A stretch of DNA of 64,000 nt from a virus (taxonomy: Duplodnaviria; Heunggongvirae; Uroviricota; Caudoviricetes). Position numbers and translations under genes: made by a program. This document shows, in pieces, positions 10,772 to 60,159 of the stretch. The notes beneath the pieces are model-generated. The model worked only from the letters and a program-made list of their open reading frames with translations. It was not told where the DNA came from and did no database searches. Position 1 is the stretch's first letter, and each line of letters starts with the position of its first letter. The stretch covers positions 1 to 64,000 of the IMG/VR virus record IMGVR_UViG_3300037467_003075; one strand, written 5' to 3'.

Positions 10772-11644
10772 TTATACTACTGCTTCAATTTTTACTTCAT
10801 CAAGTTTGTTTTCCAAGTAGCGATATGCACTATTCCTGTAAGGCTCAATGTACTGCTCCATACCAAGAGCCTCAAAGAATTTATTGCAGATATTGCCAAT
10901 AGTTTCCTGAGAATAAATCTCTTTGAGGATAAACTCAAGTTGTTCTACAGTAGAATTTTTGACTAGATTGACGATAGCAAGGGACATCATTGCCTGGCCG
11001 ATAAGTTCTTCAACACCACCTACTGCGTGGAAAAGCCTGTATTCAACAGTAGAATAGTTGCTCCCAAGAACATTCATCCATTGATATTTCCCATTCCATA
11101 TTGCATGACGATAGTAACCGTGACTATCTTTACCTTTTATTGAACGGGCATAATTATTAAGATATGTCTGCAATTCGTAGCTGTCTGATGGAGCGTTGTT
11201 CCAGTCGATTCCTTTCACCTTGCTGTTTTTGCGGAAAATCGACCTCCAACCTTTTGAAATATCACAGCAATAATCATTTCCGATGCGGTAATCTTCAACG
11301 AACAGGAAGATAATTTTCTCAATTCCTTTCCCGAAACGAAGTAGCTTTACCTTATCAAGTCCCGTAAAATCGCTGATATCGACATGGATATGTGTTCCAG
11401 CTCGATCATCCGTTCCCCATCCACAGTGTTGCATGTCTTTCCATGTTTCATACAATGGAAACAAGTCAGTCATTGGCTTCGTTCGCAGTTCTACGCCGTA
11501 TGGCTCAAGATCATCTTCCCACTCGTAGTTTTCAAGGCTACCGTCTTGACCAATGCTTACACCAGCAATCTCGATTGACTTTGGATAATCATCCAAATAT
11601 CCTTCCATCTCAATCCCGATCTTGCGATTTGTTATTAATTCCAT
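10772..11644 (-). CDS. GS-like amidoligase (Amidoligase_2 family), paralog 1
   Basis: IGIEMEGY ... QDGSL ... YGVELRTKP ... GTHIHVD ... WMNVLGSNYSTVEYRLF; these motifs recur in four other ORFs. Confidence 0.6.
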   Translation of the reverse strand: MELITNRKIGIEMEGYLDDYPKSIEIAGVSIGQDGSLENYEWEDDLEPYGVELRTKPMTDLFPLYETWKDMQHCGWGTDDRAGTHIHVDISDFTGLDKVKLLRFGKGIEKIIFLFVEDYRIGNDYCCDISKGWRSIFRKNSKVKGIDWNNAPSDSYELQTYLNNYARSIKGKDSHGYYRHAIWNGKYQWMNVLGSNYSTVEYRLFHAVGGVEELIGQAMMSLAIVNLVKNSTVEQLEFILKEIYSQETIGNICNKFFEALGMEQYIEPYRNSAYRYLENKLDEVKIEAVV

Positions 11645-20172: not shown

Positions 20173-21162
20173 TTATCGCAACCTTTCCATCGTATTTGAT
20201 CTATTATTAGATTGTCTGCGCGATTCTTGAGCTTGAGGCGGAACGACACCAATCCATTCTAGACCTCTGTTTGTGATCTCTCGACCACTCCTAGCCCGAT
20301 TAACTAATCCTTTCTGCACTAGGTAAGGCTCGATAATGTTCTCGATTGTCACCCTGTCGATATCAACACCTGTAGCAAGTGCACTGATGCCGACTGGCCT
20401 AGCCTGTGTAGAAAGGAAGTTTAGAACACGGTAATCGTTTTCATCAAGGCCAATTTCATCAATGCCCATGACAGCAAATTGATTCTTTGCAATTTCATCC
20501 GTAATATCCCCGTCAGCAAGGTAGTCTGCATATTCTTTGCAGCGGTAGAAAAAGTTAATTGCAATCCTGGCAACACCCTTAGCACGTTTTGCGATTTCTG
20601 CAACCGCATCCTGTGCAATACTTACTTTCTCTCGACCAGCCAGCTTTTGAATAATCATGCTGACCTCATCAACTTGATAATTCTGCAATTGGAAATGCAA
20701 CCCAAACCTATCGCGTAGTGGCCGCGACAAATCACCCATCAGTGTGGTAGCACCGATCAACGTAAAGCTAGGAATCCAATATCGCTGCATACCTTCTCCG
20801 ATATCGATCTCTACTGTATTGTCCTCCATCGCCGTATATAGCATTTCTTCAATGCGAATCGGCATGCGGTGGATTTCATCGATAAAGATAATGTCACCAC
20901 CATCATCATTCAACGGCGCGAAAAGAGCCTGAATAGACTCAGGTGTATTGAGATTGCCACCCATTGCTACATGAAGATTGGTGCCAAACTCATTAGCGAT
21001 AATCTCAGCCAGTGTTGTCTTACCTAAGCCAGGATTGCCATACAGCAGCATATGTGGAAGCGACTTATTGTTCTTACGGCATGCGCCAATCGTAATAGCC
21101 AACTGCGTCTTAACACGCTCTTGACCTATATAATCTCTCAGTGTAAGCGGCCTATTTGCCAT
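20173..21162 (-). CDS. RuvB-like AAA+ ATPase (Holliday-junction helicase family)
   Basis: LLYGNPGLGKTTLA Walker A; DEIHR Walker B/sensor; overall RuvB domain order including a C-terminal winged helix. Confidence 0.6.
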   Translation of the reverse strand: MANRPLTLRDYIGQERVKTQLAITIGACRKNNKSLPHMLLYGNPGLGKTTLAEIIANEFGTNLHVAMGGNLNTPESIQALFAPLNDDGGDIIFIDEIHRMPIRIEEMLYTAMEDNTVEIDIGEGMQRYWIPSFTLIGATTLMGDLSRPLRDRFGLHFQLQNYQVDEVSMIIQKLAGREKVSIAQDAVAEIAKRAKGVARIAINFFYRCKEYADYLADGDITDEIAKNQFAVMGIDEIGLDENDYRVLNFLSTQARPVGISALATGVDIDRVTIENIIEPYLVQKGLVNRARSGREITNRGLEWIGVVPPQAQESRRQSNNRSNTMERLR

Positions 21163-21563: not shown

Positions 21564-22454
21564 TTATACTGTAGCTGCTATTCTTACAGCTTCCCTTTGC
21601 TGTTTCAGCGACAATTCCCTTGCGGCCCGATTATTGATAACCGGAATATCGAAATCAATCCCAAGTGAATCAAGTAACTTCTTTGCTTTAAGTTCAATGT
21701 TAGATTCTTCTATAATGCTCTGAGCAATAAACTCAAGCTGCTCCAGCGTAGAATTTTTAACCAGATTAACGAAATTGTGGCATAGCATCGCAAACTTAGC
21801 GCCGTCTTCGGCCTTGCGAATCGGATGGAACAAGCGGAACTCAATTGTAGAATAATGGCTGTGAAAGATATTTACCCACCGATAGCGACCAAGATACACC
21901 TGGTCTGCTTCAATTGCTCCACGCGAACGATTAATTGCATCCATCAGGCTGTTCATGCTTTGTGCATTCGCGACATCACGATTCCGATCATGTATAATCG
22001 TCTTGTAGATTTCAGGAATCATCTGGCAGTATCTATTTTTATACCGACGATTCTTGACAAAAAGGAACATTATATCCTCGATCTGCTTGGCAAAATGCGC
22101 CATTTTGAGCTTATCGTGGAATGTAAAATCACCAGCGCTCACATGGATATGCAAGCTAGCTCTGCCGCTTGCCGACCAACCATAGCTTGTAATAGCTTCA
22201 AATACTTCCCCAAGCGGAGCCAGGTCATGTAACGGCTCAGTAACAAACTCTACACCATACATGCTGTATGAATCGCTCCAATGGGCATTGTGGAGACTTC
22301 CGTCTCGCTTAATCTGGCAGTATGGAATACCAGTAATCCTGCGAGGGTTAGTTCGTGAATACCCCTCAATTTCAAGTCCCACTGTCCGGTTCAAAATAAA
22401 ACCAGCATAATTCAATTCTTCCCTTTTTTTACGCGGCATATATGCCCCTCCCAT
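21564..22454 (-). CDS. GS-like amidoligase (Amidoligase_2 family), paralog 2
   Basis: VGLEIEGY ... RDGSL ... YGVEFVTEP ... SLHIHVS ... RWVNIFHSHYSTIEFRLFHP. Confidence 0.6.
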   Translation of the reverse strand: MGGAYMPRKKREELNYAGFILNRTVGLEIEGYSRTNPRRITGIPYCQIKRDGSLHNAHWSDSYSMYGVEFVTEPLHDLAPLGEVFEAITSYGWSASGRASLHIHVSAGDFTFHDKLKMAHFAKQIEDIMFLFVKNRRYKNRYCQMIPEIYKTIIHDRNRDVANAQSMNSLMDAINRSRGAIEADQVYLGRYRWVNIFHSHYSTIEFRLFHPIRKAEDGAKFAMLCHNFVNLVKNSTLEQLEFIAQSIIEESNIELKAKKLLDSLGIDFDIPVINNRAARELSLKQQREAVRIAATV

Positions 22455-23187: not shown

Positions 23188-24291
23188 TCAATTAACTGAT
23201 TCCAACAAAAAGTCTTCTCTCTTTGTAGCATACCCGTCTTGAAATCCTTCTTTGTATCCTTTGTCGTAGGATATGGCAATTTTGTTGTTCATTTCTTCTT
23301 CTAAAGAAGCTCTTCCTTTTGCCCACCCTTCAATCCAGACATTTGACTCCATGTTACGGATGTATTCTTGTAATGTTTCCAACTCATTTGTGCTTAGCTT
23401 AGTCGTAATGGTATGGAGATCGATTTCTGACGGCGCGACCCCCTCTGCGCCGTTCAAAAAAAAATAGCTTTCATCATATTCGAACCACCCTGAGTAGTTT
23501 TCCTGAAAGGAGATTGGCGTTTGGAGCAGCTGAATCATTGCCTCATCCTTAGATGTATCAAATTTGTAGATTCCATGTCTTTTTGGCTCAAGAGAAGACA
23601 CATCCTCAAAGCTCACATTTACTGTCAGATGCTCTTCATTGGCGTCTGAAATTGCATTCTTAAGAAACAATTCCACGCTAGCAAATATAATAACATTTAA
23701 GCTGTCGATCATGTACATTGTGATTGGATTGTCGTTCCTGATGATATACATCAAATTTTTGTTCTTCTTAGGAACAAAAGCCGTTGTAAAGGAACCGCTA
23801 AGCTGCTCAGCTGCCCAAACAAGGCCATCGTCATTAATAATGTCGCCTTTTGTGTCTAGTAAGCGGAAAATAACTTCGCTGTCAACTTCGGCCGCACGAT
23901 ACAGATTGTGCTTTGCAAACAGCATATCGTCATTTTGAATCATTCCATTATGAACGCCAACATAGCGGTGCGATTCAATTGGATGGTTATTTAGATTGTT
24001 CTTCTCAGAACCTTTTGTACCCATGCGGGTATGAATAAGCACGTTCTTTGTGCTTTTATTCAAGTAGCGAGTGTTAAAATGGCTAAATGCCGTTGTCCGA
24101 CACAATTCCGCCGCCCGCATAGGATATTTAAAGATACTTTGATTATTCTTAGTAAAGAAAGCAAAGCCAGTTGAATCGCGGCCGCGTATTTCATTCTCAA
24201 CTGCAATATTTCTTGCCAGGAGACGCAAATACTGCATTTCCTCGCTTGTTCGATTCTTCGGAAAAATAAGGATTCCACCTATTCCACACAC
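23188..24291 (-). CDS. class-II glutamine amidotransferase (Ntn, GAT-II) family protein, paralog 1
   Basis: Starts MCGIGG (nucleophilic Cys2); internal HNGMIQND-like motifs. Confidence 0.65.
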   Translation of the reverse strand: MCGIGGILIFPKNRTSEEMQYLRLLARNIAVENEIRGRDSTGFAFFTKNNQSIFKYPMRAAELCRTTAFSHFNTRYLNKSTKNVLIHTRMGTKGSEKNNLNNHPIESHRYVGVHNGMIQNDDMLFAKHNLYRAAEVDSEVIFRLLDTKGDIINDDGLVWAAEQLSGSFTTAFVPKKNKNLMYIIRNDNPITMYMIDSLNVIIFASVELFLKNAISDANEEHLTVNVSFEDVSSLEPKRHGIYKFDTSKDEAMIQLLQTPISFQENYSGWFEYDESYFFLNGAEGVAPSEIDLHTITTKLSTNELETLQEYIRNMESNVWIEGWAKGRASLEEEMNNKIAISYDKGYKEGFQDGYATKREDFLLESVN

Positions 24292-25406: not shown

Positions 25407-26747
25407 CTACACAATTTGTCTGTACAGCATAGCACCGATCTCTCTATCGAATGCTACAATCTTATCTTTGCCGATGAACTCAAGCAATTCATTGACTTTC
25501 GTAATCGGCACCGACAAGCGGTTAGCAACTTTGTTTTTCCAGATTGAAACATTTGGACAGTCAGTGATCTGCTGCAAAGAGATGATTTCTTTCAGGTTGT
25601 CAATGTGTTCGCTGTCGATTACTTGTTGCGGATAAATATAATCTTCGATCATCCGCCAGCTCTTGCCGCCGATTCGCATCATGGATGCAGGAGTAACAGC
25701 AATTTTCTTGATGATTTCGTAGGCAGTCGGACTAATCGCAGTGATATCGGACTTGAACCAACGAACCATATCGTTAGCCATTTGCTCAAGTTTAGTAATA
25801 TCTTCGTCGCTCAATTCGCTGGAGTCGCTGTCACGCTCACCAGTGCCAGAATTTGCAAACTTGTCAAACAATGCGCGGCGCATTTCATATTCATCCTGCT
25901 TCATGCTGATTAGGCCACACTGACTAATCTCGATTGCTTTATTCAGCATAGCAACCTCAAGAGCAACCAGTGCGCTTGCATAAGCAGGAGAAAGGTGCGT
26001 ATCAGGATAGCGAATCTCGACATGGAATCGGCAAATTTCATGACCGTCGAAGCGCAGCGGATTCAGGTTTACCATTTGATACTTGCCGTATTTATGATTC
26101 ATACCACTTTGAATATCGCGCATCGAATGCTGGAGTGGGGTATAATCGAACGGAGGCTGACGGAACAATGTGTATCGTGTAATTGCGTACCGTTGTGCGC
26201 CACCACTTGCAATCCAGAATAATTCAGGAGCAAAAATCCTATGAAGCTGATAGAAGTTTGCCAGGATGATTTCAGGCACATTCTTTTCCAGCTCAGAAAA
26301 TTCGCCGTTATAGCTTGCAAGCATGTGAATATGCATCCCTGTGTGATGCGTGGTATAAAAGTCAAACTCTTGAAACTGCTGCATGATTGACTTGTTCATT
26401 TCGTAGAACAGTTTCCAGTCGAAACGGCGGCCAACTGTTACCAGCTCCATACCATTCGGCACTGAGCCATCTGTTTTGACCTCAAGCACACCTGTCTGAC
26501 CAACATATTCGATTGTATTCGTTGGTTGGAATACCTGGCGAAAGCGTCTAAAAATATATTCTTGGTCATGCTCTCGTGGGATATGTACCTCAAACTCTTC
26601 CCCAACTTTGAGGATTTTCCCAAACGTCATTTTCCAGTAGTCAACATCGCGGCTTGTGATACGTCCCATTCGATTGCTAAACATCAGCTTTTCAAACATG
26701 CTTACTTTCTGAGCCATTATTATCATCCTCCTGTATAATGAATACAA
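25407..26747 (-). CDS. GS-like amidoligase-related protein, paralog 3 (divergent)
   Basis: VGEEFEVHIP ... TDGSVPNGMELVTVG ... TGMHIHMLASY ... YQMVNLNPLRF..HEICRFHVEIRYP parallel the motifs of the other paralogs. Confidence 0.5.
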   Translation of the reverse strand: MYSLYRRMIIMAQKVSMFEKLMFSNRMGRITSRDVDYWKMTFGKILKVGEEFEVHIPREHDQEYIFRRFRQVFQPTNTIEYVGQTGVLEVKTDGSVPNGMELVTVGRRFDWKLFYEMNKSIMQQFQEFDFYTTHHTGMHIHMLASYNGEFSELEKNVPEIILANFYQLHRIFAPELFWIASGGAQRYAITRYTLFRQPPFDYTPLQHSMRDIQSGMNHKYGKYQMVNLNPLRFDGHEICRFHVEIRYPDTHLSPAYASALVALEVAMLNKAIEISQCGLISMKQDEYEMRRALFDKFANSGTGERDSDSSELSDEDITKLEQMANDMVRWFKSDITAISPTAYEIIKKIAVTPASMMRIGGKSWRMIEDYIYPQQVIDSEHIDNLKEIISLQQITDCPNVSIWKNKVANRLSVPITKVNELLEFIGKDKIVAFDREIGAMLYRQIV

Positions 26748-29201: not shown

Positions 29202-30368
29202 TTAGACTGTAGGAAACAGCGCAGTGAGAGCTTGTTGGTGACATTTTGCGCAGTAGTAAGTGTTGTCGTTTGCTGCACCTTCATTGTAGGCAGCGTGCAC
29301 TTCATGCTCTTGCAACGCATCTTCACATTCGGCACAGAATACAATTTCGTTCTCTTCCTCGCCGTCTTCTTCATCGACGCCAGCGGCCTGTGCACTGGTA
29401 TAGATAATGACCTCGCCAGTGATAGGATCAAGTTCTCCTTCGATAATCATACCAATGGAATCGGATGCGGAGACACGAGTACTGTTTGTGCTATTCGTAC
29501 CCCTGGTATTCCAGTATTCATTATTAGTGTATGTTACCTTCGACACACTGGATGCAATGAGAATGCTCACAGGCTCACTAATCATGGTTTCGTAGGAATC
29601 GGCTGTCGAATCCAACATAACATAATTATTTGCTTTCAGCTCGTATTCCTTGAGCGTGAAAGTCTCACAGATATTAAACCGTTTGCCTACGCGGCGCAGC
29701 TTATTGAAGCTGTCAAGAATGAATTTCTTTTCAGAATTGAAGAACAGCACGCCAGCCTCTTCCCAATAGACAAAATCCATTGGACGATCTTGTTTCACAA
29801 TGTGAACAAGGTGAGGCTGTGCCTTGTGTGCAAAAGCCAAGGCGAACATGCCGCGCAGCTTTGTTTCCTCAAGCGCATTACGTAGTCCTTGATACGTAAT
29901 CTTGTCTTGATTATAATAATTGATTAACTGATAGATGATCTCGCTGTCAACTTCGGCAATACGTTCGAATCTTCCTTCGTATTGCTTAAATAGTTCATCG
30001 TCATTGGAGATTGTGCCGTTATGAACGCCGACAACGTTGCCGATGTCAAACGGATGGTTATTGTTATTATTGTCGGGCTTGCCTTTGGTGTAATACCGTG
30101 TATGAGAGATAATAGAGGCAGTATTATCATCGATATTCCTGATAATCGAATCATATTGCTCATCGAATGTCGTGAACATTTTTGCCTCCACAGCAGCCTT
30201 GTGCATCTCATAAGAAGAACCATCGCGAAGAAATGATACCAGGCCAGTAGCATGGTGCCCACGATCTTGCGTCTCGACCAAAATCTCATCGAACAAGTAA
30301 CGAATCGCGGCCCACATATTCTCCGTCCGCTCTTTTTTCAACAAAACAATCCCCGAAATACCACACAT
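29202..30368 (-). CDS. class-II glutamine amidotransferase (GAT-II) family protein, paralog 2, with C-terminal zinc ribbon
   Basis: Starts MCGISG; C-terminal CAECE...CAKCH; near-consensus promoter upstream at 30385-30420. Confidence 0.65.
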   Translation of the reverse strand: MCGISGIVLLKKERTENMWAAIRYLFDEILVETQDRGHHATGLVSFLRDGSSYEMHKAAVEAKMFTTFDEQYDSIIRNIDDNTASIISHTRYYTKGKPDNNNNNHPFDIGNVVGVHNGTISNDDELFKQYEGRFERIAEVDSEIIYQLINYYNQDKITYQGLRNALEETKLRGMFALAFAHKAQPHLVHIVKQDRPMDFVYWEEAGVLFFNSEKKFILDSFNKLRRVGKRFNICETFTLKEYELKANNYVMLDSTADSYETMISEPVSILIASSVSKVTYTNNEYWNTRGTNSTNSTRVSASDSIGMIIEGELDPITGEVIIYTSAQAAGVDEEDGEEENEIVFCAECEDALQEHEVHAAYNEGAANDNTYYCAKCHQQALTALFPTV

Positions 30369-30502: not shown

Positions 30503-31606
30503 TTATACTGCAGCGGAGGAGCGGATAACCTGAATAGCTTGCAATTCATTTGCAGTAAACAGATCGTAATTGTCAAAAACGTCATTCTGCTGTTGAAGTA
30601 AAACTGCACACTCAAGCTTGAGCGTTTCGACAATAATCTCTTTGTTGGTATCGAATGTGCAGTTAGCGTCTAATAATTGACCGACAATAACCAGTATTTG
30701 TTCCATGGTCGCATGCTTTGCAAAATTAACCATATGTGTGACCAACTCGACATATGCCTCCACCATGTCAGCACTTTTCTGTGGGTAGAAATAACGGAAC
30801 TCGACCGTCTTTCTATATGTGGCATAAGCATCAAAATTAAGTCCCATATATCTGGTGTCTGAAAATTTTACGCTACCGATATTATACAAGTCCAGTCTTC
30901 CAATCGCACGAAGAACCTGGCTCCTATATTCGGAAAGTGGGCGGCAGTACTGACTCGTGAAACGATACTCTTCTGTTACCGAATAAATAAACGGTTCAAT
31001 TCCAACCGTCAATGCAAGCAACTTCTGAAAGTCGTGTACAGTATAATCTTCTACTTCAACATGAATATGTAGGCCAGCTGTATTGTCAACATGCCAGCCG
31101 TTGCCGTCAAGCCAGTCATACATTTTGTAAATCGGAAGTGTATTGGAAAGCGGTTCACATTTGGCCTCAATGCCGTAATCGTCCGCCTCAACGTACCCAG
31201 AGCCATCACACTGATAACATTCAATTGCATTTGTACCTTCGCAACGTGGACATTTCACATAAGAGCGACCATCGCAATGATCGCAGTTTATTTCACATTC
31301 ACCATCGCATTCGCAGCAAACGTTGCCGTCCTCATCTTTCCCGCTTCCGCTGCACTCGTCACAAGTTTCATATCCATTGTTGCAGTGTTCGCAGTGAATT
31401 TCCCCATCGCTGTCGCAGTCTGGGCATTCTACATGTCCACTACCTTGACAGCTGCCGCATTCGGTATCGCCATTGCGTAGGCTGCCATCGTCTTCAATAT
31501 CCCATTCGCACCCATCTATTACGCGTCCATAAACGCGGCTATTGACGTATCCCTCAAGCTCTACCCCGAATCGACGGGGAGTATTAATTCCATGGTTTTT
31601 GCACAT
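30503..31606 (-). CDS. GS-like amidoligase, paralog 4, with inserted Cys-rich (DnaJ-like CxxCxGxG) zinc-finger module
   Basis: FGVELEGY ... DDGSL ... about 110 aa of CxxC repeats (CGSCQGSGHVECPDCDSDG...) ... GLHIHVEV ... YMGLNFDAYATYRKTVEFRYF. Confidence 0.6.
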   Translation of the reverse strand: MCKNHGINTPRRFGVELEGYVNSRVYGRVIDGCEWDIEDDGSLRNGDTECGSCQGSGHVECPDCDSDGEIHCEHCNNGYETCDECSGSGKDEDGNVCCECDGECEINCDHCDGRSYVKCPRCEGTNAIECYQCDGSGYVEADDYGIEAKCEPLSNTLPIYKMYDWLDGNGWHVDNTAGLHIHVEVEDYTVHDFQKLLALTVGIEPFIYSVTEEYRFTSQYCRPLSEYRSQVLRAIGRLDLYNIGSVKFSDTRYMGLNFDAYATYRKTVEFRYFYPQKSADMVEAYVELVTHMVNFAKHATMEQILVIVGQLLDANCTFDTNKEIIVETLKLECAVLLQQQNDVFDNYDLFTANELQAIQVIRSSAAV

Positions 31607-31678: not shown

Positions 31679-32419
31679 TCACTTAATCTTTTCGTCTAAT
31701 ATTTGACGCAAATGCGTTTCCTTATCATCGTAATTGCCTGTCATGATCTGAAACTCAGGCACCATGCTGTCAACAAACCAATCAGCATTAGCAATATACT
31801 GATTCGCTTGCTTCACAGTGCCGTCAGGCAAATAAACATCGATCATCATGCGATTGTACATATTGTACTCAGGACTTGCATCAGGATTATACCCTTCTGT
31901 GTAATCGTAGGAATTTACGACAATATGCAGCGGAATTTCAAAATATGTGCCGTACACTTTGTCACTTTCGTTCTCCGTTAATTTCGTAACCGGGAATCCT
32001 CTACCACCAGTAGCGTACATTATTTGACTCTTAACATAGGCATTAGGGATAATGTTAACGCCACCTTCTGCCTCAATGTTCTCGACATATTTGAGAATGC
32101 CGTAAGTAAACATCGGCACCATTTCACTGTACGGAGCCATTGCCGCCCCCACGGTTTTAGAATCAAATAATTGATTCATAACATGCTCAGTAAACTGATA
32201 GTTATTGTTGCGAATCAGTAACTTAGCCAGGCTGTCGGCACCTTCATCATAAGCTATGTCTGTCATAACTCTCGACCAACAAGAGATACAAAGTCTTTTA
32301 CCGCTAAAATGTTCGCTACCGGGCAAAAAATAGACAGTGAATTTAGCGGAATTGTTATTGCACTTTTCACACATTACAACTCGATTTTTCAATTTTACTA
32401 TCTCCTTTGTTTTACGCAT
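31679..32419 (-). CDS. AIG2/GGCT-like (gamma-glutamyl cyclotransferase fold) protein, paralog 1, with N-terminal zinc ribbon
   Basis: FTYGILKY (YGSL-type motif) and C-terminal EGYNPDASPEYNMYNRMMIDVYLPDGT...A.QY, paralogous to 33360-34034. Confidence 0.5.
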   Translation of the reverse strand: MRKTKEIVKLKNRVVMCEKCNNNSAKFTVYFLPGSEHFSGKRLCISCWSRVMTDIAYDEGADSLAKLLIRNNNYQFTEHVMNQLFDSKTVGAAMAPYSEMVPMFTYGILKYVENIEAEGGVNIIPNAYVKSQIMYATGGRGFPVTKLTENESDKVYGTYFEIPLHIVVNSYDYTEGYNPDASPEYNMYNRMMIDVYLPDGTVKQANQYIANADWFVDSMVPEFQIMTGNYDDKETHLRQILDEKIK

Positions 32420-32786
32420 ATTGGAATGAGAAAGATTCTACAACTGTGTTCTCTTTGACGTATGGATTCGCCTTATCAAGCACTGTCACCAATACAATAT
32501 TATATTTTTCGATTGCAAATATTGTTGACAGGTTCTTATCCTTGTCGGATATTAGAATTTGTTTGCCGCTGTTATTGTACATTTCCAACTTCGTCCCTAA
32601 TCCCAAGATAGCACTGGCAATTTGATACTTGTTTAGTCTGCGTTGCTTAATACGTTTGATTGCGTGATTTGTAGCAATCAGTCGAAAAAATTTCCCACTG
32701 ACGAAAAAACCAGTAATTTCGTTTTCGTTTAACATTTCCATATACTTTGCACCAACCTTCTCTTTTTTTGATACAAGTATATGCAA
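32412..32786 (-). CDS. hypothetical protein
   Basis: 124 aa ORF. Confidence 0.35.
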   Translation of the reverse strand: MHILVSKKEKVGAKYMEMLNENEITGFFVSGKFFRLIATNHAIKRIKQRRLNKYQIASAILGLGTKLEMYNNSGKQILISDKDKNLSTIFAIEKYNIVLVTVLDKANPYVKENTVVESFSFQYA

Positions 32787-33359: not shown

Positions 33360-34034
33360 TTAAGCGCGATAACCGCTAAAAACGTATAAAACATAGTCGC
33401 CATGTGGAATAGCGCGGCAACCATTCTTTGCCCTGGTGTCCGCACAGAAGTATGCCCACGCTTCCACCTGTGTACCATCGGAGAGTGTAACATTAACCAG
33501 CTTGCGATTGTAATGGTTATATTTTGGATTTCGTTTTGGATTGTACCCCTCAAGGCTGTCAAGGTCAGCCAGCATACGGACATAGTCTTTTTCGTCAACC
33601 CACATAACTTCGCCATGCACTTTCTTGTCACCTTCGAACATGTAAGGCAAACTGTATCCCCTAACAAACAATTCACCCTGTATTGTTGCCGCCTCTTCGC
33701 GAATTGTTTTTTTATGGAAATAATATCTGTGGTTACTCATTCCTCTGCGTAAGGTGCCATAAACAAAGAACGGATATTGTTTTTCGATTCCAGTTTCGCC
33801 TTGAACACGAACCAAACTACCAATAGAATCCAAAATTAGATTGAAGTCATAGGACAACATCCAATATGTTCCGTCAAATAAGAAAGTCCAATCCTTGCCG
33901 TTGTCCGTTGCGGATTCATGTAATTCGCGGGTGTCGCGCCGCTTTCCTTCATATCCAACAACAATCTTATTGTTTCTCATGCCGTATATATTGATCTTAC
34001 CCCAATACGTTTGCTTGCTTGCTAAAACTGGCAT
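33360..34034 (-). CDS. AIG2/GGCT-like (gamma-glutamyl cyclotransferase) protein, paralog 2
   Basis: PFFVYGTLRRGMSNH (GGCT YGSL-type motif) ... LDSLEGYNPKRNPKYNHYNRKLVNVTLSDGTQVEAWAYF. Confidence 0.6.
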   Translation of the reverse strand: MPVLASKQTYWGKINIYGMRNNKIVVGYEGKRRDTRELHESATDNGKDWTFLFDGTYWMLSYDFNLILDSIGSLVRVQGETGIEKQYPFFVYGTLRRGMSNHRYYFHKKTIREEAATIQGELFVRGYSLPYMFEGDKKVHGEVMWVDEKDYVRMLADLDSLEGYNPKRNPKYNHYNRKLVNVTLSDGTQVEAWAYFCADTRAKNGCRAIPHGDYVLYVFSGYRA

Positions 34035-36475: not shown

Positions 36476-37114
36476 TTATCCATGCTGTGCCTCCGTTACC
36501 TTTGTCATGTTCACAACTGCAACTTTCGGAATCCAACCTGACCAGGTGAATGAGGCCATTTGACGCTTCATTTCTTCATATCGCTCCTGCAGCTCTTCCT
36601 CCGAATTTAGCGGATTGATATGGAAGTGCTGTCCGCATATCGGCCCTAATCCATACAGGAGGCTGACAGGATGCGTCAATTCGTGACCGCAATGCAAGCA
36701 ATGCGACGATGGAGCCAAAAAGCCTTTCAACTCGACCAGGTAGGCTTTTGTAGTCTCTTTTTTGATTATACCACGCATTTCACGGCAAGGGATAGGATTA
36801 TTTTCCTGTTTCGTCAACCATTTTTTCACCCTAATTTGATATTCCTGCCGCGGTACCGTTTCACGCACAGGATTGATTGCAGGGGCCGGAGACTCAACTT
36901 TGGAGAACCTGGAACGCACTGCTGGCAACTTAATTTCCCAATCAGCAAACACTTTTTCTACTGCCGTGTTATCGTCAACGTGTGCCATGAAGAACGTTGA
37001 ACCAGCTGCATCCTTGCCAATTAATTCCATCATGATAGTGCGATTAAATTCGGGCGAACGATAGTTAAAAAACTGACCAGTAAACTGACCTCTCGAAACC
37101 GTTGCCGTTGCCAT
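36476..37114 (-). CDS. hypothetical protein with Cys cluster
   Basis: 212 aa; CLHCGHE...ICGQ; preceded by the motif and RBS GGGAGG. Confidence 0.4.
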   Translation of the reverse strand: MATATVSRGQFTGQFFNYRSPEFNRTIMMELIGKDAAGSTFFMAHVDDNTAVEKVFADWEIKLPAVRSRFSKVESPAPAINPVRETVPRQEYQIRVKKWLTKQENNPIPCREMRGIIKKETTKAYLVELKGFLAPSSHCLHCGHELTHPVSLLYGLGPICGQHFHINPLNSEEELQERYEEMKRQMASFTWSGWIPKVAVVNMTKVTEAQHG

Positions 37115-37678: not shown

Positions 37679-39121
37679 TCAATCACCCATGTACACCAGG
37701 CGGCCCGCCATAAACTCAAGATCGACATTTTCACGCTTGAACATTTGATACAGGCTGACCGCTTGTTTTTGCTGCACCCCAAGGAAAGCAGCGATGTTCA
37801 AATGAAAGTCGTTCAAGTTTCCAGCCATCGGCACCGCGAAACGCTTGATTGCTTCGATATAGCGGCCGCGCAGCTCATCATCGCGCACCCTGATGCGAGT
37901 CGAAAAGTGTGATTCCATTTTCGTCATGTCGTAATTTTGCTCTATTTTGTTTTCCTCCAAAAACTGAGGAATCGGGCAGTCAATCAGTTTGTCAAGCACA
38001 TCCAGCGCATCCAGCGAACCAGAAAGCTTGAAATATTTGAAAAGATAGGACTTCATTAGCGTATAATTTTCGACGATATACGTCTTATCCACTCGTTTCC
38101 AATTCACCGAATGATTCTGAGCCTGATTTTGACTGGCCTCGATTTCAGCTTTCGACGGCATGAAGTAGAAGCTATTCCGCGCCATATCGTAGGCAAACAA
38201 TGCGATTGCGCGATTCAAGGCGAACCAAGCGGACATCATGCTAGCGGAAAAATTGCAGTCCATCATGCGGTTTTCGAAGTGGAATGCATCAGTAAAGCGT
38301 GTATCCCACTCGTATTCCATGTCGCGGCCGTCATATCGATTCCAGAAGCCATTGCCACAAGGAATGCGGAAACACGATTCGCGCTGCATACTGACCATAT
38401 AGCCGTCAGTCTTTTTCGTGTGACCATTTTCTTCTGTACCGACAGCCGTTCTAATATTATACTCTACGGCATTGTACCAAGAGTAAAGCCTATCGCCATG
38501 CATCATATCATAACCATTCCCTGCTGTCCTACGTGCACCGCGAATGTTTGTCATTGACACCCATTTCAGCACTGGGAGGAAACGAACCAAGAACATGGCA
38601 ACGTTGCGGTACATTTTCATGACTGGCAGCTTGATTGCCACCACAGAACCATCCTCACCACCAAAATCCGCATAGGCGACAGCAGTGTGCACATGTGTGC
38701 TGGCACCGTAGTTATGGCGAACGCCGCCCGACGCTTCCAGGTAAATCGGCATGATACGATCAAACTCATCTTTAATGCCGTTGAAATCGTAAGCATGGAA
38801 CGGACTAGTTGAAGTTTCCGTTGAGTGCCAGTCACGATTTTCAACGTAGCAGCCGCCGCCGTCAGTATGAGAATCGTCATTCCAGCCGTTGCCGTCGTTT
38901 ATTGCTTTCGAAGAGGCGCAGCCAGCGCCGATTGTATTCAGACGACGAAGCGTTGTGCCTGGTCCATTTGCAGTAGGTGCTTCAAATTCGCACCCTTGAC
39001 GGATAAAACGATTGATTGCCGACAGCGACTGCTGCTTCCCGTTCATTTGCTCCATAAACTCTTTACTGTTCACCGTTACCACTTTCCTTCCGTTTTGGTT
39101 TGTTTTCCCTTCTGAATACAA
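37679..39121 (-). CDS. GS-like amidoligase-related protein, paralog 5 (divergent; start uncertain)
   Basis: GCEFEAP ... STHVHTA ... SWYNAVEYNIR echo the paralog motifs. A TTGACA-N17-TAATAT promoter sits at 39122-39150. Confidence 0.45.
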   Translation of the reverse strand: MYSEGKTNQNGRKVVTVNSKEFMEQMNGKQQSLSAINRFIRQGCEFEAPTANGPGTTLRRLNTIGAGCASSKAINDGNGWNDDSHTDGGGCYVENRDWHSTETSTSPFHAYDFNGIKDEFDRIMPIYLEASGGVRHNYGASTHVHTAVAYADFGGEDGSVVAIKLPVMKMYRNVAMFLVRFLPVLKWVSMTNIRGARRTAGNGYDMMHGDRLYSWYNAVEYNIRTAVGTEENGHTKKTDGYMVSMQRESCFRIPCGNGFWNRYDGRDMEYEWDTRFTDAFHFENRMMDCNFSASMMSAWFALNRAIALFAYDMARNSFYFMPSKAEIEASQNQAQNHSVNWKRVDKTYIVENYTLMKSYLFKYFKLSGSLDALDVLDKLIDCPIPQFLEENKIEQNYDMTKMESHFSTRIRVRDDELRGRYIEAIKRFAVPMAGNLNDFHLNIAAFLGVQQKQAVSLYQMFKRENVDLEFMAGRLVYMGD

Positions 39122-57546: not shown

Positions 57547-57597
57547 AAAGAGCATGGTTGAAAATTATATTCAACTACGCTCTTTATTTTTTACGTG
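57547..57597 (+). terminator. rho-independent terminator after the SGNH hydrolase gene
   Basis: Imperfect 13-bp stem (GAGCATGGTTGAA ... TTCAACTACGCTC) followed by TTTATTTTTT. Confidence 0.45.
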
Positions 57598-57669
57598 GCG
57601 AAGGTTAGACGAATCGAACGCCTATCGACAGGGTTGGAATCTGCCGTGTTACCATTACACTAAACCCCC
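57596..57669 (-). tRNA. tRNA-Trp (anticodon CCA)
   Basis: Cloverleaf read by hand: acceptor GGGGGTT/AACCTTC, D stem GTGT/ACAC, anticodon loop TTCCAAC, T arm AGGCG-TTCGATT-CGTCT, encoded CCA. One A-C mismatch in the anticodon stem. Confidence 0.5.
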
Positions 57670-57677
57670 CAATAATA

Positions 57678-57750
57678 TACGCCCACAAGGTGAATTGAAC
57701 ACCTAATTACGACTTAGAAGGTCGTTGTTATATCCTTTTAACTATGCAGG
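57678..57750 (-). tRNA. tRNA-like fragment (Arg-TCT-like anticodon arm and T arm; no pairing acceptor)
   Basis: ACGAC-CTTCTAA-GTCGT and AGGTG-TTCAATT-CACCT are present, but the 5' acceptor strand is missing. Confidence 0.25.
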
Positions 57751-57823
57751 CAAACGTGCGGAGAGCTAGGTAACTCTCCATATTAAATGTATGAGAAGGT
57801 AGCATATGAAATGCAATCACACG

Positions 57824-57898
57824 TGGTGCAGGGCAGGGTAGTCGAAACCCTATCATCTGAGTGGAAGTCAGATATCATATCCATTAGACCAGCCCCAC
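57824..57898 (-). tRNA. tRNA-Gly (anticodon TCC)
   Basis: Acceptor GTGGGGC/GCCCTGC, anticodon arm TCTGA-CTTCCAC-TCAGA, T arm AGGGT-TTCGACT-ACCCT, CCA. Confidence 0.55.
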
Positions 57899-58273
57899 AT
57901 ATTTAATTACTGAATCATAAACCATTCATTTTTATGGTTATCTTTGTTGTTTGCATATATTTCGTTTGCTGTATCAAGCATGTAGCCATCTGTTATAGCT
58001 TTCAGTATTCCCTTTGTTTCTTTGCACATATTAATATCGTCCCAAGTAAGGCCAATAAGCTTATTCATTGCTTCTTTCTGCCCTTCTGTTCCATATATAT
58101 TAATAATATGCAAACATTTCTGTAAATCATGAACCATAACAACTACCTCCATATATAATTTATATACGTATCTATGGGCGGAGCTTCTTTTTATAGTGGT
58201 TAGCTTTTTAAACTATGCCGCCCTATAAAACCACTGTGTGCACTATGTTCCCACTAAGGAGTGCGTTATACGT

Positions 58274-58347
58274 TGGTGTGGACAGTGGGGATTGAACCCA
58301 CACCCTAACGTTGGCAACGTCAAGTTCTTCCATTAAACTATGTCCAC
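58274..58347 (-). tRNA. tRNA-Gly (anticodon GCC)
   Basis: Acceptor GTGGACA/TGTCCAC, anticodon loop TTGCCAA, T arm GTGGG-TTCAATC-CCCAC, CCA. Confidence 0.6.
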
Positions 58348-58534
58348 ATAATACGGGTGGCTCCCTCCGAACCTTAATACGACCACCCCATGCAACCTAC
58401 ATAGGAGAATATTTTCGGTTGCACACCCTGGCTGTCTTTTGCTTATTTCGCGGCTCCTATAATGACTAGATAAGCAGTACCAGCTTAATGTCCGTTTTTA
58501 TTAAGGGATTAAACGGAGCCGAAATCAACCGATG

Positions 58535-58600
58535 CAAGGGGACGGATTCGAACCATCTAGTCGCGCACTAAGCCCTCCGTTTGGACTTCCCTTACGTGTG
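58535..58600 (-). tRNA. tRNA-like element, atypical (about 63 nt, no clear D arm)
   Basis: T arm GATGG-TTCGAAT-CCGTC and acceptor GTAAGGG/CCCTTGC are present, but the region is too short for a canonical cloverleaf. An adjacent 50-nt hairpin lies at 58598-58650. Confidence 0.25.
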
Positions 58601-58665
58601 CTTGTTTTTCTAAGTCGGCATCTCGCCTCTGAGAGGATAAAACAAGCAAAACCCAGTGATTAACG

Positions 58666-58761
58666 TGGTACAGGAGGAGGGACTCGAACCCACAGCCGCG
58701 CACTAATCTGGTGCATACGAGAGGTATAAGCTCTCCGCTCTGCCAATTGAGCTACTCCTGC
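58666..58761 (-). tRNA. long (96 nt) tRNA-like gene with about 25-nt variable region, anticodon TAT
   Basis: Acceptor GCAGGAG/CTCCTGT, D arm GCTC-AATTGGCA-GAGC, anticodon arm GAGAG-CTTATAC-CTCTC, T arm GTGGG-TTCGAGT-CCCTC, CCA. Confidence 0.4.
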
Positions 58762-58765
58762 ATAT

Positions 58766-58841
58766 TGGATGCCGAATGAGGGAATCGAACCCCCAATAGA
58801 AGATTACAAATCTACTGTTATTCCATTTAACTAATTCGGCA
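58766..58841 (-). tRNA. tRNA-Thr (anticodon TGT)
   Basis: Acceptor TGCCGAA/TTCGGCA, anticodon loop TTTGTAA (one stem mismatch), T arm GGGGG-TTCGATT-CCCTC, CCA. Confidence 0.5.
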
Positions 58842-58912
58842 TATATCAATCGGCATTTATCGGTTGCCTAATCACCGACCCTTTTCCATATATGAAGGAT
58901 GAAACTACGTTA

Positions 58913-58987
58913 TGGTAGGGAATAAGGGAATCGAACCCTTGCCCCAAGCTCCCAAAGCCCGTGTTCTAACCATTATACTAATTCCCT
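58913..58987 (-). tRNA. tRNA-Pro (anticodon TGG)
   Basis: Acceptor AGGGAAT/ATTCCCT, anticodon arm CGGGC-TTTGGGA-GCTTG, T arm AAGGG-TTCGATT-CCCTT, CCA. Confidence 0.5.
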
Positions 58988-59156
58988 ATAAATAATATAG
59001 CTGTCACTCTTGCCAACATCGTATCAGTTGGTGATAAGTTAGCAGTATAGCCTAGATGTTCAGCACTACTAACGCTTTACCCTTTTCCAATGTGACAGGA
59101 TACAGGACGCAACATCCTCCTGAATCGTCGGTAAATCCCTTTAGCTATATTACGTT

Positions 59157-59234
59157 TGGTCGGGAAGGTGAGAGTCAAACTCACAGTTGTACAAGGTTTG
59201 AGCTTGTTGCGTCTGCCTATTCCGCCACAACCCG
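59157..59234 (-). tRNA. tRNA-like, short variable arm, anticodon CAA (Leu codon UUG); two T-T mismatches in acceptor stem
   Basis: Anticodon arm ACAAG-CTCAAAC-CTTGT (perfect stem), T arm GTGAG-TTTGACT-CTCAC, CCA. Confidence 0.35.
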
Positions 59235-59238
59235 ATAA

Positions 59239-59324
59239 TACCGCCAAGGAGACTCGAACTCCTACGCCCAATTAAGAGCAGCAGATTTTAAATCTGCTTT
59301 GTCTACCGATTCCATCATGGCGGC
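59239..59324 (-). tRNA. tRNA-Leu (anticodon TAA), type II
   Basis: Anticodon arm GCAGA-TTTAAAA-TCTGC, long variable arm, T arm GGAG-TTCGAGT-CTCC, acceptor GCCGCCA/TGGCGGT. Confidence 0.55.
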
Positions 59325-59504
59325 AAAGAATACAGAATACACTTGCTTGCGCTTCCCGCGCTTAAAATTTGTGTTACGTGAGAGCATCCATGCCAACTAT
59401 GCACTTAGGTACGCCTACCACATAACTTCGTCAAGTTATCATGCATGTTGGACACTTACTGGACACTCATTGTTCCGCATTACACGGTTGTAATCAAGAC
59501 GCTC

Positions 59505-59580
59505 AAATTAGTTGGGACTCGAACCCAAAAGGACTTTTTGGAAGAAAGTTTGCTAGCCATTAGCACTGTATTTGTTTTGC
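59505..59580 (-). tRNA. tRNA-like, degenerate (Gly-TCC-like anticodon arm; acceptor pairs poorly)
   Basis: ACTTT-CTTCCAA-AAAGT and TTGGG-TTCGAGT-CCCAA are present; only 4 of 7 acceptor pairs form. Confidence 0.25.
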
Positions 59581-59647
59581 TGTAAGCGTCTTACGTTCTT
59601 ATATTATTATTATATTACATTTCCTTGATTTTGTCAAGGGTAAAACG

Positions 59648-59738
59648 TGGCGGGTGGCGAGGGATTTGAACCCCCACAGGCTATCAACCCTTAAGCGCTT
59701 TTCAAGAGCGCCCCCTTACCAGATTCGGACAGCCACCC
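59648..59738 (-). tRNA. tRNA-Ser (anticodon TGA), type II
   Basis: Acceptor GGGTGGC/GCCACCC, anticodon arm GCGCT-CTTGAAA-AGCGC, long variable arm, T loop TTCAAAT, CCA. Confidence 0.6.
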
Positions 59739-59741
59739 ATT

Positions 59742-59820
59742 TGGAGAGCAAGATCGGACTCGAACCGACGAATAATAGCGATTTTGCAGATCGCCGCGTT
59801 TGCCTCTTCGCCACTTGCTC
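59742..59820 (-). tRNA. tRNA-Cys (anticodon GCA)
   Basis: Acceptor GAGCAAG/CTTGCTC, anticodon arm GCGAT-CTGCAAA-ATCGC, T arm GTCGG-TTCGAGT-CCGAT, CCA. Confidence 0.55.
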
Positions 59821-60158: not shown

Positions 60159-60159
60159 A

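Follow-up and report, generated by a model that had tools for sequence, protein, structure and literature searches.

A Caudoviricetes amidoligase interrupted by a DnaJ/BSD2-type cysteine-rich module, possibly an acidic docking arm

Positions 1 to 64,000 of the IMG/VR record IMGVR_UViG_3300037467_003075, a Caudoviricetes virus, form the window analysed here. One of its genes, LIG_A, encodes what is in all likelihood a carboxylate-amine ligase, and its catalytic domain is interrupted by a 99-residue, strongly acidic insert related to the cysteine-rich domains (CRDs) of DnaJ and BSD2. The reading that we put forward, tentatively and at nearly even confidence, is that of an intact ligase carrying a mobile DnaJ/BSD2-type 'zinc ladder' as an acidic docking arm, within a gene module devoted to gamma-glutamyl or amide chemistry. 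The gene and its parts are as follows:

30503..31606, minus strand: LIG_A, the ladder-bearing Amidoligase_2 gene, 367 aa plus stop codon
31616..31622, minus strand: strong Shine-Dalgarno sequence AAGGAGG, read from the sequence, 9 nt upstream of the LIG_A ATG
31475..31606, minus strand: N-terminal part of the core, aa 1-44, with GVELEG (E16, E18) in strand 1 and DDGSL (D40, S42) in strand 2
31178..31474, minus strand: predicted zinc ladder insert, aa 45-143, 99 aa, 18 Cys and no Leu, delimited against the paralog
31208..31459, minus strand: eight CxxC motifs, aa 50-133, with predicted pairs 1+8, 2+7, 3+6 and 4+5 giving four Zn sites
31319..31351, minus strand: acidic tip loop, aa 86-96, SGSGKDEDGNV, the sole long spacer of the ladder
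30506..31177, minus strand: C-terminal part of the core, aa 144-367, with YGIE (E147), GLHIHVEV (H180, H182), EFRYF (E269, R271) and a helical C-terminal region
31012..31545 and 31091-31480, plus strand: spurious antisense ORFs, from the ORF list

The preliminary description of this DNA had presented the gene as an amidoligase paralog, and profile searches agree: LIG_A passes the Pfam gathering threshold of Amidoligase_2 (PF12224; 47 bits, cutoff 22, E 3.9e-12), PHROG amidoligase families match it (E 4e-18), and a ladder-less Amidoligase_2 protein is encoded elsewhere in the window (21564-22454). The active-site sheet has all its expected motifs (GxExEG, DGS, xGxE, GLHxH and EFR). In the homolog alignment A1, the residues E147, H180, H182, E269 and R271 do not vary at all, and conservation is 90% or higher at E16, E18, D40 and S42. 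The core has the glutamine-synthetase (GS) / glutamate-cysteine-ligase (GCL) type of fold; in the model, its strands span aa 8-21, 27-30 and 33-39 and pLDDT reaches 85-98 over aa 144-367, the five models having mean scores of 83.8, 74, 71.4, 71.1 and 68.8 and being good in the best one only. Sequence and fold thus strongly support a phage carboxylate-amine ligase with intact catalytic motifs and the fold shared by GS, GCL, YbdK and PafA, which presumably activates a carboxylate as an acyl-phosphate at the expense of ATP. The LIG_A fold is as close to YbdK, GCL and GS as to PafA/Dop, which counts against a protein-ligase reading.

Aligned with the in-window paralog, which has the loop HNAHWSDSYSM in its place, the insert is a clean insertion between DDGSL (aa 39-43) and YGIE (aa 144-147). 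Its placement between DDGSL and the downstream core motifs therefore stands as first described, and the alignment boundaries bring its size to about 99 residues rather than about 110. It concentrates the cysteines of the protein (18, versus 6 in the remaining 269 residues). Where at least eight CxxC pairs had been announced, we count exactly eight, non-overlapping and starting at aa 50, 61, 72, 82, 97, 108, 119 and 130, that is, at spacings of 11-11-10-15-11-11-11; when the residues of the insert are shuffled, only 37 of 20,000 permutations reach eight. The four peptides quoted as examples of the array are all present in LIG_A. The description of the repeats as CxxCxGxG fits three of the eight motifs perfectly, the other five being degenerate; CxxCxGxG is nevertheless the consensus over ladders.

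The insert is not an artefact, and the objection that its cysteines might be unconserved in homologs falls: the ladder columns are kept in seven of 12 homologs and in many more distant clusters. Cysteine conservation, spacing symmetry and structural match together rule out a low-complexity origin. The composition of the insert does have one side effect, which the preliminary description had noticed: both long antisense ORFs exist, and they are by-products, since the insert has no leucine and none of the codons TTA, CTA and TCA, which leaves the opposite strand free of in-register stops. ORF 31091-31480 covers aa 43-172 of LIG_A, essentially the insert.

Several comparisons relate the insert to DnaJ and BSD2. 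Against PDB sequences, a ladder-only family profile (A2) finds BSD2 (E 6.4e-6), the E. coli DnaJ CRD 1exk (E 3.5e-5) and DNAJA3 (E 7.7e-3), so that the comparison with the DnaJ cysteine-rich domain proposed at the outset gives a significant match; the full-family profile A1 matches solved DnaJ/BSD2-type CRDs at E 1.6e-4 to 4.5e-4, and Foldseek superposes the insert on a solved CRD with a TM of 0.64. LIG_A itself scores below the Pfam thresholds, with 18.4 to 22.7 bits for BSD2_CRD (PF25436; threshold 27) and 13.6 for DnaJ_CXXCXGXG (PF00684; threshold 32.7). Stand-alone ladders homologous to that of LIG_A do pass BSD2_CRD (P0043, for instance, at 34.8 bits), and P0003 has a precomputed PF25436 match. 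Sequence profiles and model hence support the membership of the insert in the DnaJ/BSD2 cysteine-rich-domain superfamily. At this level the original term 'DnaJ-like' is justified, with the restrictions that BSD2 is closer than DnaJ, that the Pfam scores are sub-threshold, that the ladder has eight motifs (four predicted zinc ions) instead of four (two zinc ions), that it is extremely acidic, and that LIG_A lacks a J domain: Pfam gives only Amidoligase_2 and a weak BSD2_CRD, and the sequence holds no HPD tripeptide.

The arrangement of the motifs points to a nested structure. CxxC counts per ladder are 2, 4, 6, 8 or 10 across carriers, and all 16 of them have their longest spacer at the centre. 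Mirror mismatch of the spacings amounts to 14, versus 35±4.5 in permutations (p ~3e-5, on related, non-independent sequences). The 10-motif homolog P0005 places its two additional motifs symmetrically about the centre; folding it gave a low-confidence model, with a ladder pLDDT of 25-50. From the mirror-symmetric spacings and the even motif counts we infer a nested ladder of one to five rungs, in which motif i of LIG_A would pair with motif 9-i. Two tandem four-motif CRDs, or sequential pairing of neighbours, are rejected: ladders of 6 and of 10 motifs occur, the sole long spacer lies in the middle, and a period-2 spacing model leaves a mismatch of 232 versus 14 for the mirror model. In the model of the LIG_A insert (pLDDT ~80), short strands are laid out symmetrically, at aa 58-60, 69-71 and 79-81 on one side and 105-107, 116-118 and 127-129 on the other. 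The module would be one long antiparallel hairpin, its four predicted zinc ions held by paired motifs and the acidic tip at its end.

Its surface is strongly negative: the net charge is -17 over the 88-residue motif array of LIG_A (aa 50-137), with only four Lys/Arg in the 99-residue insert, and homolog ladders range from -12 to -32, except for the one-rung variant P0012, which is not acidic. Identity at ladder positions other than Cys and Gly is 19%, versus 53% for the core; a weakly conserved ladder surface is equally expected of a purely structural or neutral spacer. The same eight-motif module is also found in unrelated proteins; between ligase-borne and stand-alone modules all 16 cysteines are invariant, and a tip consensus E-D-x-D-G is common to the LIG_A ladder and the stand-alone eight-motif modules. 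Among amidoligases, separate lineages carry the ladder at one or the other of two loops; clusters that share just ~35% core identity still have it, and it has been lost repeatedly within the clade. The ladder-less close relatives P0008, P0010 and P0011 have an intact enzyme with all catalytic motifs, P0008 and P0010 having at most a small Cys cluster left at the ladder loop. The ladder thus appears to evolve fast at its surface, and the two insertion loops, the invariant cysteines and the retention at ~35% core identity suggest that selection acts to keep it.

A megablast search of GenBank phages with the 5 kb region found nothing, and in tblastn no phage record matched LIG_A over 80% or more of its length, the matches being core-only or ladder-only. 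A scan of GTDB genomes with family patterns found no relatives, a BFVD fold search with LIG_A returned ordinary amidoligase cores only (TM <=0.52), and we found no description in the literature of an amidoligase combined with a DnaJ-type, zinc or zinc-ribbon element. Ordinary Amidoligase_2 proteins have no ladder, be they the two paralogs in the window or any of the GenBank phage and BFVD matches. In their sources, the divergent ladder carriers are named 'hypothetical protein' or not at all; the contigs of the stand-alone ~280-aa ladder family, P0014, P0031 and P0017 are only 1.5-3.2 kb long.

LIG_A has a glutamine amidotransferase (GATase) gene directly downstream and a gamma-glutamyl cyclotransferase (GGCT) gene directly upstream. 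The genes of its neighbourhood, and those of a parallel, ladder-less module, are:

29202..30368, minus strand: GAT_A, class-II (Ntn) glutamine amidotransferase-like, with nucleophile Cys2, an acidic linker and a C-terminal Zn ribbon (CAEC...CAKC)
31679..32419, minus strand: GGCT1, gamma-glutamyl cyclotransferase-like, with an N-terminal Zn ribbon (CEKC...CISC); Pfam GGACT E 3e-5, PHROG 2520
32412..32786, minus strand: small, basic DUF4258 protein; Pfam DUF4258 E 7e-6
33360..34034, minus strand: GGCT2, a second GGCT, without Zn ribbon; Pfam GGACT E 2.8e-25
21564..22454, minus strand: LIG_B, the ladder-less Amidoligase_2 paralog, 296 aa, net charge +5; Pfam E 5e-12
23188..24291, minus strand: GAT_B, a second class-II GATase, without Zn ribbon; Pfam GATase_6 E 2.8e-13, no CxxC motifs
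10772-11644: third, weaker Amidoligase_2 copy

The combination of DUF4258 protein, GGCT, ladder ligase and Zn-ribbon GATase is conserved in phage contigs of ~160 kb. GAT_A, which is 44-60% identical across loci, matches Pfam GATase_6 (E 8e-15) and, weakly and below threshold, DUF7479; in NCBIfam its matches are partial, to the glutaminase domains of GlmS, PurF, AsnB and EgtC. Its Zn ribbon is kept in six of six loci and solely in the GATase adjoining the ladder ligase, that of the ladder-less module never having one. The ribbon of GGCT1 is seen in three loci (the window, L003 and L033), and the DUF4258 protein, in every case next to the module, is kept as a neighbour in L001, L003, L031 and L033; in the part of the literature consulted, DUF4258 is assigned to the toxin-like BECR/RelE-ParE fold. 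NCBIfam has no match for the ligases, the GGCTs or the DUF4258 protein, its matches to the GATases being partial and confined to glutaminase domains, and PADLOC has none for any module protein. LIG_B is 26% identical to the LIG_A core. In one module, then, the ligase, the GATase and one GGCT all bear predicted zinc elements and the parallel module has none, which suggests that one chemistry is present twice in the genome, in copies that differ in function. Two further conserved proteins of the window, of ~446 and ~480 aa (25407-26747 and 37679-39121), carry a GMHIHM-like motif; as candidate divergent amidoligases they were rejected, with an hhalign probability of ~1% or less.

To our knowledge, the characterised CRDs (DnaJ, BSD2, anti-TRAP) all mediate protein contacts, and it is on this ground that we infer a docking function for the ladder. 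The preliminary description had taken the resemblance to DnaJ as a sign of a protein or peptide substrate, or of client recruitment, which may reasonably be drawn from the analogy; the LIG_A ladder is, however, extremely acidic, unlike a generic binder of unfolded polypeptides. We favour a more particular picture, in which the mobile eight-motif module, inserted between strands 2 and 3 of the active-site sheet, would stand beside the catalytic centre as a rigid, highly negative docking arm. There it would select or position a macromolecular partner, the likeliest being a basic protein modified by the ligase, rung number (one to five) and ladder surface being tuned from phage to phage. The ligase would be teamed with the Zn-ribbon Ntn glutaminase-like enzyme and the gamma-glutamyl cyclotransferases, for a probable gamma-glutamyl or amide chemistry: LIG_A may write a bond that GGCT or GATase processes or erases, or the GATase may supply ammonia. 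Net charges of -12 to -32, 19% surface identity, variable rungs and repeated loss suggest such an arm rather than a conserved interface.

A conserved interface is what would be expected if the ladder were an assembly scaffold, docking the Zn ribbons of GATase and GGCT into a channelled amidotransferase or a write/erase complex. Class-II GATase domains normally function docked to a synthetase, and the partial matches of GAT_A to GlmS, PurF and AsnB fit this idea, as do the strict pairing of ladder ligase with C-terminal-ribbon GATase in all six loci, never matched in the ladder-less module, and the N-terminal ribbon of GGCT1 in three. We nonetheless consider the scaffold unlikely. One would expect a fixed interface to exceed the ~19% identity of the ladder surface, set against 44-60% for GAT_A; rungs vary from one to five while the GATase ribbon is constant; stand-alone ladders sit in unrelated proteins; and acidity on both sides, ladder and GATase tail, makes their direct pairing electrostatically unfavourable.

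Three other readings each have a slim chance. In the first, the ladder would mimic a nucleic-acid or polyanion surface and dock a basic host protein, which the ligase would tag covalently through a gamma-glutamyl or amide bond, as in a PafA-like system. If this were true, candidate targets would be DNA- or RNA-binding defence, nucleoid or ribosomal proteins, GGCT and the Ntn-GATase would be eraser or processing enzymes, and the target range would be reprogrammed by gain and loss of rungs and by fast surface evolution.

The second would make the ladder a regulatory element, either a lid or switch at the edge of the active site or a zinc- or redox-sensitive device whose unfolding upon oxidation or zinc loss alters ligase activity. 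Cys4 zinc centres act as redox switches in other proteins, such as Hsp33, and both ends of the LIG_A insert lie a few residues from the conserved D40, S42 and E147 on the active-site strands. A precedent for a lid is the Dop loop: in the GS-fold enzyme Dop, ~40 inserted residues close to the active site tune catalysis and substrate selectivity (PMC9556782). Against regulation, which we hold to be quite improbable, four to five redundant predicted zinc sites and a long rigid hairpin seem excessive for a switch, the gene context gives no hint of redox sensing, and the catalytic cycle can do without the ladder, since ladder-less relatives retain all catalytic motifs.

The third is neutral expansion, that is, a repeat-prone zinc-knuckle loop grown by rung duplication and tolerated as a stable, soluble protrusion. 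Variable rung number, repeated loss, weak surface conservation and the intact enzymes of P0008, P0010 and P0011 would all suit it. However, every ladder cysteine is invariant, and the maintained mirror symmetry implies that rungs are gained or lost in matched pairs. Independent insertion at two sites and persistence over clusters with ~35% core identity speak in the same direction, and the consistently strong acidity points to selection beyond folding, which leaves neutrality little credit.

Finally, nucleic-acid-binding zinc fingers that would target the ligase to DNA or RNA, for instance for base hypermodification, are far-fetched here: many CxxC zinc fingers do bind nucleic acids, large phages frequently hypermodify their DNA, and the profile yields weak, non-significant matches to retroviral nucleocapsid knuckles (E 0.2-0.7), but this reading is rejected because the ladder charge is strongly negative (-17 for the LIG_A array, with its four Lys/Arg, and -12 to -32 in homologs), while the significant homology is to protein-binding CRDs and no DNA-modification genes occur among the neighbours scanned.

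The ladder ligase matters in several respects. Phage modules of amidoligase and GATase, with or without GGCT, are widespread and have so far been the object of computational predictions only; a docking arm on one paralog would offer an experimental handle. The ladder also illustrates a structural principle, by which the DnaJ/BSD2 zinc hairpin can be extended rung by rung, from one to five predicted zinc sites. Moving as a cassette between unrelated proteins, it would amount to a natural, modular and rigid spacer that protein engineers might exploit.

Among known systems, the nearest enzymes are the phage carboxylate-amine ligases of the Amidoligase_2 family, with their GATase-II and GGCT/AIG2 neighbours (Iyer, Abhiman, Burroughs & Aravind 2009, as reported in PMC11318856 and PMC10580990). 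LIG_A shares the family HMM, the fold, the catalytic motifs and the neighbourhood of class-II GATase and GGCT; unlike them, its catalytic domain is interrupted by a 99-aa hairpin with four predicted zinc ions, and its partner enzymes carry Zn ribbons. The literature examined reports no assayed member of the family, published functions having been predictions since 2009. A chemical parallel is provided by the ergothioneine pathway, where a GS-fold gamma-glutamyl ligase, EgtA, acts before a class-II GATase-like Ntn hydrolase, EgtC, which later removes the gamma-glutamyl group. The pair resembles LIG_A and GAT_A, the latter matching the EgtC model TIGR03442 partially (E 1.8e-7; 30.7 bits, equivalog cutoff 218); no other ergothioneine genes are present here and the pathway is one of small molecules, which limits the parallel to chemistry.

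PafA, a GS-fold protein ligase, is a precedent for the docking-arm reading, as is the selectivity-tuning Dop loop. The similarity of LIG_A to the PafA/Dop fold is no higher than to the small-molecule ligases YbdK, GCL and GS, and general scans of the neighbours with Pfam, PHROGs and NCBIfam found no Pup-like or proteasome genes. Unlike the LIG_A ladder, the Dop loop is disordered and without cysteines, and from our reading of the sequences it appears to lie between strands 1 and 2, like insertion site B and not the site used in LIG_A.

On the side of the insert, the CRD of DnaJ, a type I Hsp40 (PF00684; 1exk), has the same motif and the nested two-strand zinc topology that is predicted for LIG_A, which for its part lacks the J domain, the G/F region and the C-terminal client-binding domains and has twice the motifs in a far more acidic ladder. 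A DnaJ-type module within a phage enzyme has a precedent in the HMO-2011-type marine phage DNA polymerases, where a partial DnaJ central domain with CXXCXGXG motifs is inserted between catalytic domains (PMC9038755); it differs in its host enzyme and in having two motifs only, for one zinc site. The closest solved structure by sequence is the CRD of the Rubisco assembly chaperone BSD2 (PDB 6ekb, 9ci1), which shares the CxxCxGxG motif at 11-residue spacing and whose antiparallel zinc hairpin serves protein-protein contact. BSD2, however, has four motifs (two zinc ions) and a long non-Cys tip loop in a stand-alone chaperone domain, whereas the LIG_A module has eight motifs (four predicted zinc ions), an acidic tip and an enzyme as its host.

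The open reading frame described preliminarily as an amidoligase paralog is referred to here as the ladder ligase, its array of CxxC motifs as the zinc ladder, and each zinc site predicted from two paired motifs as a rung. It lies among the following features:

10772-11644, minus strand: 290-aa amidoligase-like ORF, third in the window and more divergent (E 6.8e-8 to PHROG amidoligase families)
20173-21162, minus strand: full-length RuvB-like AAA+ ATPase (RuvB_N, E 1e-50), directly after the ladder-less amidoligase
21564-22454, minus strand: ladder-less Amidoligase_2 paralog
25407-26747, minus strand: conserved protein, 446 aa
29202-30368, minus strand: class-II GATase
30503-31606, minus strand: ladder ligase, 367 aa
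31679-32419, minus strand: GGCT
32412-32786, minus strand: small, mostly basic, toxin-like DUF4258 protein of BECR/RelE-ParE fold, beside the ladder ligase and GGCT
37679-39121, minus strand: conserved protein, 480 aa

The ladder ligase contains all the peptides first quoted for it, and a canonical AAGGAGG site stands 9 nt 5' of its ATG. It scores 47 bits against Pfam Amidoligase_2 (cutoff 22) and matches PHROG amidoligase families down to E 4e-18; a profile search of PDB sequences found no solved structure matching the core. Five AlphaFold2 models were built from 13 sequences, of which only the best was good (mean pLDDT 83.8, pTM 0.71). Residues E147, H180, H182, E269 and R271 are invariant in homologs, and conservation reaches 90% or more at E16, E18, D40 and S42. 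Given the family score, the model and the intact motif residues, the protein is an intact glutamine synthetase (GS)-fold ligase and is taken as an active enzyme. We consider this identity, together with the architecture described below, very likely to be correct.

In a BLASTP comparison with the paralog at 21564-22454 (26% core identity), the insert falls cleanly between DDGSL and YGIE. The insertion thus stands as first described, while these boundaries reduce its size from about 110 residues to about 99. It holds 18 cysteines, versus 6 in the other 269 residues; where at least eight CxxC pairs had been claimed, the protein has exactly eight non-overlapping motifs, at residues 50, 61, 72, 82, 97, 108, 119 and 130 (spacings 11-11-10-15-11-11-11), and only 37 of 20,000 composition-preserving shuffles of the insert reach this number. 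Leucine is absent from the insert, as are TTA, CTA and TCA codons, which leaves the opposite strand without in-register stops. Both long antisense ORFs noted earlier do exist, the one at 31091-31480 covering residues 43-172, essentially the insert, and they are a compositional by-product.

The ladder ligase alone falls under the Pfam thresholds for both BSD2_CRD (18-23 bits against 27) and DnaJ_CXXCXGXG (13.6 against 32.7). Profiles match solved structures significantly: that of the whole family reaches BSD2 at E 1.6e-4 and DnaJ (1exk) at E 4.5e-4, and that of ladders only reaches them at E 6.4e-6 and 3.5e-5. The label 'DnaJ-like' is therefore right at superfamily level; by profile comparison the closest solved relative is BSD2, and the protein, which lacks a J domain, does not count as a DnaJ. 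A few ladder-bearing proteins already carry PF25436 in databases.

Across carriers, motif spacings are mirror-symmetric around one longer central spacer (13-11-11-11-18-11-11-11-13, 11-13-13-19-13-13-11 or 13-15-22-15-13, for example). Motif counts are even (2, 4, 6, 8, 10), and in each of 16 carriers the longest spacer is central. Mirror mismatch sums to 14, versus 35±4.5 with arm spacings permuted (p about 3e-5, for related, non-independent sequences), and a model pairing neighbouring motifs gives 232. In P0005, a ten-motif homolog whose ladder is modelled at pLDDT 25-50, the two extra motifs are placed symmetrically around the centre, and the AlphaFold2 model has three short strands per ladder arm at symmetric positions. 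Taken together, these features indicate that the ladder would form one long antiparallel hairpin, motif i pairing with motif n+1-i, and that it is a DnaJ/BSD2 topology lengthened to between one and five predicted zinc sites.

Twelve homologs were taken from a set of 5.8 billion proteins. The cysteines proved conserved, with an aligned array in seven; two show a short Cys-Asp stub, a further one has two motifs and another nothing. When 1.84 billion cluster representatives were searched exhaustively, 1572 matched. Among 154 retrieved proteins, the ligase core is present in 74, and about 25 of these bear 2-10 arrayed motifs on the N-terminal side of GLHxH. Nearly all arrays occupy either site A, after DGSL (most carriers, the ladder ligase included), or site B, which follows the first strand immediately (P0031 and P0147). 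A rough tree built on the core alone groups the site-A carriers in a single clade; ladder-less members nest within it, which points to ladder losses, and the in-window paralog belongs to a ladder-less sister clade. The ladder surface evolves fast: outside Cys and Gly, ladders share about 19% identity among homologs whose cores share about 53%. One phage carries, in tandem with an eight-motif ligase, a second ligase with a single non-acidic rung (P0012; L031 2687-3664), as if a duplicated gene had since diverged in the length of its ladder.

The eight-motif cassette recurs in a family of about 280 aa, flanked by unrelated N- and C-terminal regions; all 16 cysteines are invariant, the tip is again E-D-x-D-G and identity is 42-46%. 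Members outside the window include P0043, P0050, P0037, P0063 and about 60 more representatives. Other, larger proteins have longer arrays of the motif, reaching 27 CxxC, and several non-ligase ladder proteins exceed the BSD2_CRD threshold. Since the same cassette sits in unrelated proteins, the ladder behaves as a mobile module. Ladder-only matches (36-42% identity) also occur in two uncultured megaphages of about 640 kb, LR756502.1 (251683-251922) and LR745206.1 (61038-61340), at sites lacking the ligase core.

The window, with a terminase fragment, a replication initiator, an HNH endonuclease and 19 tRNA genes, is part of a large phage. An identical ladder ligase is found on a 162,770-bp JGI contig; 50,697 GenBank phage records contain no nucleotide relative of the 5 kb region around its gene and encode no full-length counterpart of the protein. 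Its closest relative with a name (50% identity) comes from a Paenibacillus xylanexedens assembly, where it lies in the same gene order on a contig of 160,979 bp. The tRNA array (57596-62618, minus strand) includes tRNA-Cys(GCA), two tRNA-Gly and tRNA-Asp, whose amino acids rank among the commonest in the ladder, which may be coincidental.

Two modules can be distinguished. Module A, in six loci, comprises the DUF4258 protein, GGCT, the ladder ligase and the GATase, which in 6/6 loci keeps a C-terminal zinc ribbon (residues 345-376 in the window, after an acidic linker); GGCT has an N-terminal ribbon (residues 17-47) seen in three loci. DUF4258 counterparts (L001 9073-9408, L003 6931-7383, L031 580-930, L033 9379-9777) always lie beside the ladder ligase and GGCT; the protein may serve as partner or target, or its gene may be toxin-like and unrelated. 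Module B pairs a GATase and a ligase beside the RuvB-like ATPase, free of zinc decorations; the ATPase keeps its position after the ladder-less amidoligase in L001 and L031. In some phages the amidoligases number three, bearing 8-10, 2 and 0 motifs. The ORF at 10772-11644 brings the window to three paralogs. A DUF6011 zinc-ribbon protein is encoded a few genes upstream of ladder ligases (window 36476-37114, minus strand; L003 1836-2435; L033 4041-4715; L036 42-407). The 446- and 480-aa proteins, with similar-sized proteins at equivalent positions in related loci, have no Pfam or PHROG matches; profile comparison (probability about 1% or less) rejected them as divergent ligases, despite a GMHIHM-like motif.

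The ladder has a net charge of -17 here and of -12 to -32 in homologs; whole ladder ligases range from -32 to -51 and the in-window paralog is at +5. To our knowledge, all characterised cysteine-rich domains (CRDs: DnaJ, BSD2, anti-TRAP) mediate protein contacts, and PafA is a GS-fold protein ligase. The ladder would bind four zinc ions and project from the edge of the active-site sheet, as its ends lie a few residues from D40, S42 and E147. We tentatively favour, at a little under even confidence, a role for it as a rigid anionic docking arm that picks out a macromolecule to bind; a basic protein modified by the ligase is the most likely such partner. Further precedents are the Dop loop, which lies close to the active site of a GS-fold enzyme and adjusts its substrate selectivity (PMC9556782), and HMO-2011-type phages, whose DNA polymerases contain an inserted partial DnaJ CRD (PMC9038755).

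Its perfect co-occurrence with the GATase ribbon could instead mark an assembly scaffold for the module's own zinc-ribbon enzymes, which we judge unlikely given a poorly conserved ladder surface, variable rung number and like charges. Adjacency to the active-site strands would also suit a regulatory lid or redox/zinc switch, for which the Dop loop is again a precedent, but four to five redundant sites seem excessive for a switch and we find this improbable. Neutral repeat expansion, with which variable rung number and repeated loss agree, appears just as improbable against invariant cysteines, preserved symmetry, two independent insertion sites and consistent acidity. Many CxxC fingers bind nucleic acids, but strong negative charge makes this role highly improbable here.

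Neither the enzyme family nor the zinc-finger superfamily is new. Full-text literature searches found no description of an Amidoligase_2 interrupted by a CRD, of CRD hairpins with 3-5 zinc sites or of the zinc-decorated module. For phage amidoligase systems, function has so far been a matter of predictions only, and the ladder ligase provides a well-supported, experimentally tractable handle on this unsolved enzyme system; the zinc ladder is a neat modular structural principle, though the finding is not revolutionary. The presence of GGCT and the Ntn-GATase as partners hints at gamma-glutamyl or amide chemistry: the ligase would write a bond that GGCT or the GATase erases or processes, or the GATase would supply ammonia. 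The GATase at 29202-30368 matches the EgtC model in part, and the EgtA/EgtC pair offers a chemical analogy for the ligase/GATase system.
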